Assembly (NCBI GenBank): GCA_024275415.1
Contig: JAJRZD010000015.1
Location: 1-32,000, forward strand
Length of the DNA: 32,000 nucleotides
DNA from: an archaeon
GTDB taxonomy: Archaea; Asgardarchaeota; Thorarchaeia; Thorarchaeales; Thorarchaeaceae
Direction: 5' to 3'
Shown here: in pieces, positions 7,057 through 8,292 of the stretch
Layout of the letters: each line of letters starts with the position of its first letter
Position numbering within the stretch: the stretch's first letter is position 1
Translations under genes and position numbers: made by a program
Notes under the pieces: generated by a model
Database searches by the model: none
Told to the model about the DNA's origin: nothing
What the model saw: the letters and a program-made list of their open reading frames with translations, nothing else

Positions 7057-8292
<1,236 letters not shown>

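Follow-up and report, generated by a model that had tools for sequence, protein, structure and literature searches.

How could an archaeon make the A'' subunit of its RNA polymerase from an rpoA2 gene that is interrupted by 30 nucleotides (nt) carrying two in-frame stop codons? The question is raised by a 32,000-nt stretch of DNA, hereafter the window (contig C117:1-32000), from a metagenome-assembled genome (MAG) of 3.53 Mb in 127 contigs, with 47% G+C, 92.9% completeness, and 4.46% contamination. The nearest relatives of this genome (here G000; others are G003, G006, G007, G022, etc.) carry the labels Candidatus Thorarchaeota or Promethearchaeota, that is, Asgard archaea. The insert falls within TLRTFHYAG, a segment that we take to be the RNA polymerase trigger loop with its conserved Phe-His. 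Its fold, its conservation in five other assemblies, and its likeness to the tRNA introns of the same genome suggest that it is an intron of the bulge-helix-bulge (BHB) type, and in several relatives the same hairpin borders a mobile insertion.

A stop-containing insert in the trigger-loop codons of rpoA2

The minus strand of the window contains an operon of rpoB, rpoA1, and rpoA2, followed by more open frames; 3' of rpoA2 in the insert-bearing relatives, the gene calls are L30e, NusA, S12, and S7. The Pfam model RNA_pol_Rpb1_5 covers the two open pieces of rpoA2 consecutively (model positions 40-93 and 118-266). The pieces, and the parts of the insert between them, are as follows.

8013..8256, minus strand: 5' part of rpoA2 (exon 1), with start TTG at 8256 or ATG at 8243; its last base is the first of the Phe codon
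7983..8012, minus strand: 30-nt insert, a candidate BHB-type mini-intron, 1 + 9 (stem) + 5 (loop) + 9 (stem) + 4 (GUGA) + 2 nt, the deletion of which gives TLRTFHYAG
7057..7982, minus strand: 3' part of rpoA2 (exon 2), opening with TT from the Phe codon, then the codon of the catalytic His; stop codon at 7057-7059
8015..8018, minus strand: central helix H, exon strand GCAC, from the CGC-ACA codons
8003..8011, minus strand: stem h', 5' strand (AUCACGUAC), pairing perfectly with 7989-7997
7998..8002, minus strand: loop AUUUC, the same in six of six alleles
7989..7997, minus strand: stem h', 3' strand (GUACGUGAU)
7985..7988, minus strand: central helix H, intron strand GUGA, with exon GCAC (8015-8018) as its partner

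The minus strand at this point reads CTG CGC ACA T|AATCACGTAC ATTTC GTACGTGAT GTGA AA|TT CAC TAT GCA; the whole insert in context (8012..7983) is CTG CGC ACA T|AATCACGTACATTTCGTACGTGATGTGAAA|TT CAC TAT GCA. An earlier note on this DNA had described a 30-nt insert with TAA and TGA in frame inside TLRTFHYAG, and the minus-strand sequence and its frame, TLRT*SRTFRT*CEIHYAG, bear this out. The fold that had been described is present as well, with a 9-bp perfect Watson-Crick stem, a 5-nt loop, three of four pairs between GCAC and GUGA, and bulges AUA and AAU. The 5' bulge, AUA, is 3 nt long and is flanked by the GCAC/GUGA helix and by the 9-bp stem, which has the support of covariation, as in a BHB motif. 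Cutting after the second base of each bulge would yield ACA TTT CAC and so restore Phe, as the earlier note had proposed. The same note had also paired the flanking exons, ACGCUGC with GCAGGCGU; this pairing exists in the window, but only its 4-bp core, CUGC/GCAG, recurs, in four of the six known alleles, 7 nt downstream of AAU.

Two conventional accounts of such an interruption were discarded. With its stop codons and a length of 30 nt, the insert is too small for the catalytic core of a group I or group II intron or for the in-frame domain of an intein. Reassignment of stop codons was rejected because TAA and TAG terminate rpoA2 and rpoA1 and because the second stop of the insert varies among alleles.

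Six alleles at the same nucleotide

Our family set comprised 86 genomes, 76 of which have an rpoA2 match. The gene is interrupted at this site in 3 of the 76 (G000, G006, and G007), and a degenerate pattern that allowed any 18- to 47-nt insert at the codon, applied to 400 phylum genomes, picked out these three again and, in addition, two metagenome contigs from the Joint Genome Institute (JGI). One more allele, the sixth, was recovered through the mobile element described below rather than through the insert pattern. Homologous 30-nt inserts at the identical nucleotide are thus present in the window and in five other independent assemblies (G006, G007, Ga0315535, Ga0055456, and Ga0374083). On a seventh contig, SRR13394437, the gene is likewise called in split form, and gene calls are all that places it here. 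Apparent stops within rpoA2 of G042 and G043 proved to lie past the end of the gene.

The borders of the insert are fixed independently by protein homology, since all of the uninterrupted relatives (27 of 27) read TL(R/K)TFHYAG at the site. Deletion of the insert is predicted to restore Thr-Phe-His in six of six alleles, as ACA TTT CAC in two and as ACA TTC CAC in four; T|TT and T|TC are synonymous variants, in keeping with a joined codon that specifies Phe. Among the first five aligned alleles, five of the nine stem pairs have changed on both sides, slid controls of this five-sequence alignment contained no compensatory changes, and the sixth allele adds three more compensatory stem pairs. 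Other bases do not vary: the loop AUUUC, the first base of the intron, the GUG of the central helix, and the exon sequence CGCACAU are invariant among the alleles. In the central helix, three pairs are invariant and the fourth position is G.A in five alleles and G.U in G007, which therefore has four of four pairs if G.U is counted. The exon codons CGC-ACA are invariant in insert-bearing alleles whereas synonymous sites nearby vary, and by our count Arg is encoded by CGC in 6 of 6 insert-bearing alleles versus about 1 of 25 uninterrupted relatives. There is no conservation of the peptide that translation of the insert would give. Together with the covariation and the invariant bases, this indicates selection on nucleic acid structure, and the sharing of an insert with compensatory changes among independent assemblies shows that it is not an assembly artifact.

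There is a single copy of rpoA2 per genome, with intact reading frames on both flanks. The earlier note held that a second intact rpoA2 would refute the intron; none was found in the assemblies of G000, G006, or G007. The tree of rpoA2 exon 2 agrees with the species tree.

tRNA introns and splicing enzymes of the genome

Introns in the tRNA genes of G000 were recovered by deleting candidate mini-introns and then rerunning ARAGORN. Of the 26 tRNA mini-introns obtained, 12 are exactly 30 nt long and 9 have a 9-bp stem and a 5-nt loop in the 1+9+5+9+4+2 arrangement of the rpoA2 insert, the commonest layout among them. The majority of the tRNA genes in this genome appear to be interrupted. Two comparators with a layout identical to that of the rpoA2 insert are situated in the window itself.

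14765..14794, minus strand: 30-nt T-loop intron of tRNA-Lys(UUU)
22840..22869, plus strand: 30-nt T-loop intron of tRNA-Asp(GUC)

The multi-intron genes to which they belong, tRNA-Lys(UUU) at 14690-14870 (minus strand) and tRNA-Asp(GUC) at 22740-22900 (plus strand), went undetected by ARAGORN and by default Rfam searches, and both were detected once the 30-nt T-loop introns had been deleted. The only Rfam matches in the window are three tRNAs.

The genome encodes two EndA paralogues and RtcB. One EndA gene, the presumed processing enzyme, is in the window, about 21 kb from the interrupted rpoA2; the other paralogue maps to C69:17555-17809.

29289..29930, minus strand: EndA paralogue with tRNA_int_endo_N and catalytic domains

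Asgard EndA has been reported as an (alpha-beta)2 enzyme with an L1 loop that accompanies a broad substrate range (PMC5829648), and the heteromeric EndA of crenarchaea is reported to cleave relaxed motifs outside tRNA, in cbf5 pre-mRNA (PMC2738675). The broad specificity presumed for the EndA of this genome is taken from the L1 loop described in PMC5829648.

A genome-wide search for further mRNA introns, which combined the BHB layout with the joining of open reading frames (ORFs), returned 20 matches versus 28 to 37 at random positions, and this criterion is thus nondiscriminating; a looser list of 87 candidates is noise, and neither result speaks for or against other mRNA introns. A 29-nt hairpin at positions 21295-21323 of the window, flagged as another intron site, was dismissed as a Kae1/Bud32 gene junction with no intron. 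The two genes, Kae1/TsaD and a Bud32-like kinase (20639-22371, minus strand), are separate and overlap by 13 nt, with the hairpin at their junction.

The hairpin borders a mobile insertion in related genomes

In four other assemblies, the hairpin terminates an insertion of 5 to 20 kb. The distance from rpoB to rpoA2 in G006 and G007 is 5 to 7 kb greater than in the window, and both genomes have the order rpoA1, a first copy of the rpoA2 5' part (copy 1), inserted DNA with a giant ORF, a divergent second 5' copy (copy 2), the hairpin, and the 3' part. Copy 1 ends exactly at ...ACAT|, the position of the 5' splice site, in G006, G007, and Ga0374083 (the uninterrupted target site reads ...ACATTCCACTATGC...). 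Pairwise identity between G006 and its nearest relative, G003, is 89.6% for copy 1 and 89.7% for the 3' part versus 70.0% for copy 2; between G007 and its nearest relative, G022, the corresponding values are 88.3%, 86.3%, and 55.0%. Judged by these identities, with which the trees agree, copy 1 and the 3' part are native and copy 2 is foreign. The element thus occupies the same site in different genomes and brings its own replacement of the adjacent gene segment, both of which are features of a homing cassette.

Fragments of the native 5' part, 87 to 127 amino acids (aa) long, persist directly after rpoA1, where they end at TLRT, with a stop one or two codons further on, and may still undergo translation.

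L064 3645-4028: relic native rpoA2 N-terminal fragment
L063 3620-3886: relic native rpoA2 N-terminal fragment
L068 20036-20299: relic native rpoA2 N-terminal fragment

The giant ORF encodes 1313 to 1418 aa in G006 and G007, and the two proteins are 42% identical. Only six homologues were found among 5.8 billion proteins; five of the six are encoded directly upstream of a split rpoA2, and the sixth, P0003, is on a 6-kb contig that shows no rpoA2, so that the giant ORF directly precedes a hairpin-bearing rpoA2 wherever the downstream context is visible. The strongly conserved motifs of the family include DPRARI, GRPNIN, EVES, and SSEH. Domain searches returned nothing in Pfam, PHROGs, NCBIfam, PDB sequences, or the ESM Atlas, and among the results there was no recognizable endonuclease domain; AlphaFold2 produced no usable model for the C-terminal 354 aa (predicted local distance difference test, 38.7).

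L063 4651-8907: giant ORF family (1300-1400 aa)
L064 6568-10509: giant ORF family
L065 6001-10101: giant ORF family
L053 1-1500: giant ORF family

The cargo of the element is variable and its right end is conserved. The insertion of Ga0374083 is about 19.7 kb long, and its relic exon again ends at ACAT|. IS110-family transposases are found within or beside two copies of the element; they are absent from G007 and are therefore probably secondary insertions.

L068 4509-19989: cargo of the Ga0374083 element, including a DUF87/HerA-like ATPase (905 aa), a KaiC-like ATPase, a helix-turn-helix protein, a 1858-aa Laminin_G_3 protein, and a polysaccharide deacetylase
L064 4181-5497, minus strand: IS110-family transposase
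L066 4259-5584: IS110-family transposase

No integrase was recognized in the element, and the two junctions contain no repeated core. Among themselves, the left junctions have no sequence in common, which argues against a simple core-type integrase, and integration in the style of a tyrosine recombinase was ruled out by the lack of a core common to the left and right junctions. Nor can the entire insertion be a single giant BHB intron, as the flank of the relic exon is unable to pair with the strand at the 3' splice site.

The window's own copy

The giant ORF is absent from the window, where the hairpin and the open frames are kept. From the stop codon of rpoA1 to the HYAG codons is 587 nt in the window as opposed to 261 to 286 nt in most relatives, a spacer about 300 nt longer, and positions 8372-8417 of this spacer match 46 nt situated just after the giant ORF in G006 (85% identity; E = 3e-8).

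8568..11219, minus strand: rpoA1 (A'), the operon neighbor upstream of rpoA2
8257..8567, minus strand: unusually long spacer separating rpoA2 from the rpoA1 stop, probably an element remnant, with the 46-nt match to G006

Identity comparison cannot tell whether the 5' part of rpoA2 in G000 is native or foreign, and the window represents either a decayed element or a locus resembling the donor that gave rise to the cassette.

The reading of the insert as a tRNA-type intron, as put forward in the earlier note, holds in its structural part, which is backed by six covarying alleles, the tRNA-intron layout, the EndA and RtcB genes, and the single rpoA2. The regulatory meaning attached to it, a link between tRNA processing and transcription, is without support. 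The insert occurs only sporadically, in 3 of the 76 rpoA2-matched genomes of the family and 3 of the 400 of the phylum. This distribution, combined with its position elsewhere at the edge of a mobile insertion by which the 5' part of the gene is duplicated and replaced, suggests the origin of the insert in a selfish element rather than in regulation.

Proposed splicing of the insert and its alternatives

The insert is probably a relaxed BHB intron that is spliced from rpoA2 mRNA by EndA and RtcB, a reading drawn from sequence comparison and predicted folds. Exon GCAC would pair with intron GUGA, the 3-nt bulge AU|A would precede the 9-bp stem and its 5-nt loop, and AA|U would hold the 3' cut. 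Each bulge would be cleaved behind its second base by the heteromeric (alpha-beta)2 endonuclease, the two exons then being ligated by RtcB. The split Phe codon, U|UU, would thereby be rebuilt beside the trigger-loop His, allowing translation of a normal A'' subunit. Cleavage, ligation, and the register in which they take place are what we infer for the transcript; in the 30-nt register, the predicted junction is CGCACAUUUCACUAU (in TC alleles, ...CAUUCCAC). On the DNA side, the hairpin would form the right-hand end of, and travel with, a mobile insertion that is found only at one rpoA2 nucleotide and that supplies both a replacement rpoA2 5' part and the orphan giant ORF; the window would be a reduced form that has lost the giant ORF and retained the hairpin. 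For the element, the hairpin may plausibly serve to disrupt the target sequence in DNA and yet stay removable from RNA. The best reading of its history is that the mini-intron either came along with a site-specific mobile insertion or became captured by it.

Several observations count against splicing as just described. In the 30-nt register, five of the six alleles have only three of the four central-helix pairs, whereas an alternative 28-nt register has a central helix, CACA/UGUG, with four of four pairs in all alleles and an 8-bp stem. The two registers are equal in stability, within 0.5 kcal/mol in five of six alleles, and the product of the 28-nt register would read ACA UAA, i.e., a stop codon (predicted junction, ...ACAUAAUUCAC). 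No outer helix h directly adjoins the AAU bulge, as the strict hBHBh' motif demands, and with its 3' bulge lacking an adjoining exon helix, the predicted fold belongs to the relaxed HBh' form only. The bare layout is common, with 196 perfect matches genome-wide versus 203 in a mirror control (strict-layout counts). The invariant loop and covarying hairpin could alternatively be a recognition structure of the element at the DNA level. Finally, rpoB in the same operon contains an in-frame TAA in place of a conserved Ser codon (12139-12141, minus strand; GRT*PPRFLEE), so the MAG consensus is not flawless. Five relatives have TCA, TCT, or TCG at this rpoB site and an uninterrupted rpoB of about 1150 to 1200 aa, and one C-to-A substitution accounts for the TAA, which is a nonsense variant or else a MAG consensus error.

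Since the central helix never varies, covariation cannot choose between the registers. The tRNA introns share this register sliding; where the 28-nt register also passed the filter, the 30-nt register was chosen as the one giving a tRNA of canonical length, with the exception of tRNA-Lys, and in tRNAs an adjoining outer helix can fix the register. RNAfold gives the region a minimum-free-energy structure other than the BHB, with a z-score of just -1.7. We estimate a probability of about 2e-5 that a random 30-mer fits the layout in the exact register, and of about 0.02 that a preexisting 23-nt hairpin sits at the right offset with three of four central pairs. Given how common the bare layout is, the case draws its weight from the coincidence of the homology-defined borders with the cut sites of the motif and from the covariation.

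The hairpin might instead be chiefly an end structure in DNA, a site for recombination or target masking, with the interruption overcome in RNA by means other than EndA splicing. Its constant position at the right junction of the insertion, beside the element-borne 5' part, speaks for this, as do the statistically unremarkable BHB-like layout and the sequence invariance of the loop and closing pairs, which is unlike tRNA intron loops. We nevertheless regard it as unlikely: an essential single-copy gene still requires the 30 nt to be removed, the window has maintained the hairpin and frames without a giant ORF, and the offset of the hairpin and its exon pairing match the tRNA intron layout (the 0.02 estimate given above). 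A DNA-level function is, moreover, compatible with splicing. The consensus problem in rpoB, together with a MAG that is 92.9% complete and about 4.5% contaminated, could also mean that the gene is simply broken, as a pseudogene or through a consensus error, and that the polymerase is made from an unassembled copy. This is the hardest of the alternatives to credit, given that an insert with compensatory changes is common to the window and five independent assemblies, that both flanks are open and conserved, and that G000, G006, and G007 hold no second copy.

Two further alternatives place the solution in translation. The A'' subunit could be made as two polypeptides, with termination at the UAA after Thr and a restart at the in-frame AUU or AUC before His, splitting the trigger loop in the manner of MobA. 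The codon after ACA is invariably UAA, that before CAC is in every case AUU or AUC, relic N-terminal fragments that end at TLRT are kept in four genomes, and the splitting of an essential enzyme gene by a mobile element is documented (10.1101/2022.08.31.505936). Such a restart would have neither a standard start codon nor a clear ribosome-binding site, and it would sacrifice a Phe that is universally conserved and break the trigger loop at the tip; starting instead from GTG at 7920, the next standard start, would remove the catalytic His, and variation in the split codon is solely synonymous for Phe (TTT/TTC), all of which makes a split protein improbable. Alternatively, ribosomes could bypass the insert, as in T4 gene 60, where a stop codon likewise follows the take-off codon (here ACA, which in the 28-nt register belongs to the 5' arm of the stem-loop) and where the bypass cassette is also part of a mobile element with a replacement gene segment (10.1101/2022.08.31.505936). 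Here there is no matched landing codon: the codons before resumption are GAA or GUU followed by AUU or AUC, which would put Ile rather than Phe into the product, and the only downstream ACA, in the loop, runs into UGA or UAG in two alleles. A hop is also unable to rebuild a codon that is split across the gap, and we consider bypass very improbable. With the gap splitting a codon and hopping failing for want of matched codons, removal at the RNA level is the only simple route to Phe-His.

A broader proposal is offered tentatively, as somewhat short of an even prospect: that there exists a family of Thorarchaeota elements that target one trigger-loop nucleotide, carry a replacement 5' exon, and interrupt their own target with an EndA-spliced mini-intron, such that the gene can still be expressed.

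Comparison with known systems

If spliced as predicted, the rpoA2 insert would be a second case of EndA-spliced mRNA, in an Asgard archaeon, in the trigger loop of RNA polymerase, and with a layout indistinguishable from that of the host's tRNA introns, and tRNA splicing machinery could carry out essential mRNA splicing in the lineage closest to eukaryotes. Its link to a site-specific mobile insertion in which an exon is duplicated suggests how such introns might arise and spread, by a mechanism that can be tested. The analysis also brings to light an orphan family of 1300- to 1400-aa proteins whose only known context is the rpoA2 site. As a practical matter, gene callers split or truncate rpoA2 in these genomes, which affects marker gene phylogenies and estimates of completeness.

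The closest precedent is the cbf5 pre-mRNA intron of Desulfurococcales and Sulfolobales, which is likewise short, situated in a protein-coding gene, and often of relaxed motif, processed by a heteromeric endonuclease outside the tRNA context, and distributed in a pattern of gain and loss (PMC2738675). As of 2009, EndA-dependent splicing of pre-mRNA had been confirmed for no archaeal protein-coding gene other than cbf5 (PMC2738675); our literature search found nothing later that changes this status and no paper describing an rpoA2 intron or its mobile element. Unlike the cbf5 intron, the rpoA2 insert lies in the trigger-loop codons of RNA polymerase A'', belongs to the Asgard phylum, has the layout of the local 30-nt tRNA introns, and is tied to a mobile insertion with a duplicated 5' exon, and its splicing is predicted only. 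The noncanonical 30-nt tRNA introns of Asgard archaea (10.64898/2026.10.13.758758) resemble it in length, layout, the supply of part of the motif by the exon, and ambiguity of register; that preprint makes no mention of mRNA introns. The tRNA introns differ in forming a strict hBHBh' motif with an outer helix h from the tRNA stem, whereas the rpoA2 insert has no adjoining h, and in having variable loops, whereas the loop of the rpoA2 insert is invariant.

In gene-restoring integrative elements, such as those that integrate into tRNA genes, a displaced native part also lies beside an element-borne replacement. In contrast to these elements, the rpoA2 insertion has no repeated junction core and no recognized integrase, interrupts a protein-coding gene in its middle, and leaves in the restored gene a hairpin with stop codons. 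The MobA element of T4 occurs only in the topoisomerase gene, carries a segment homologous to the region that it displaces, and leaves a 50-nt structured insert that contains a stop codon (10.1101/2022.08.31.505936). The rpoA2 element shares with this MobA/gene 60 cassette a single site in an essential gene, a replacement segment, and a structured, stop-containing insert at the junction, and it departs from MobA in that its giant ORF contains no recognizable endonuclease domain. In T4 the protein is split and the ribosome skips 50 nt between matched codons, whereas the rpoA2 insert splits a codon and needs to be removed from RNA. Should the element-family proposal be right, these insertions would constitute an archaeal, splicing-based counterpart of the T4 MobA/gene 60 bypass cassette and a route by which mobile DNA can plant spliceable introns in essential genes.
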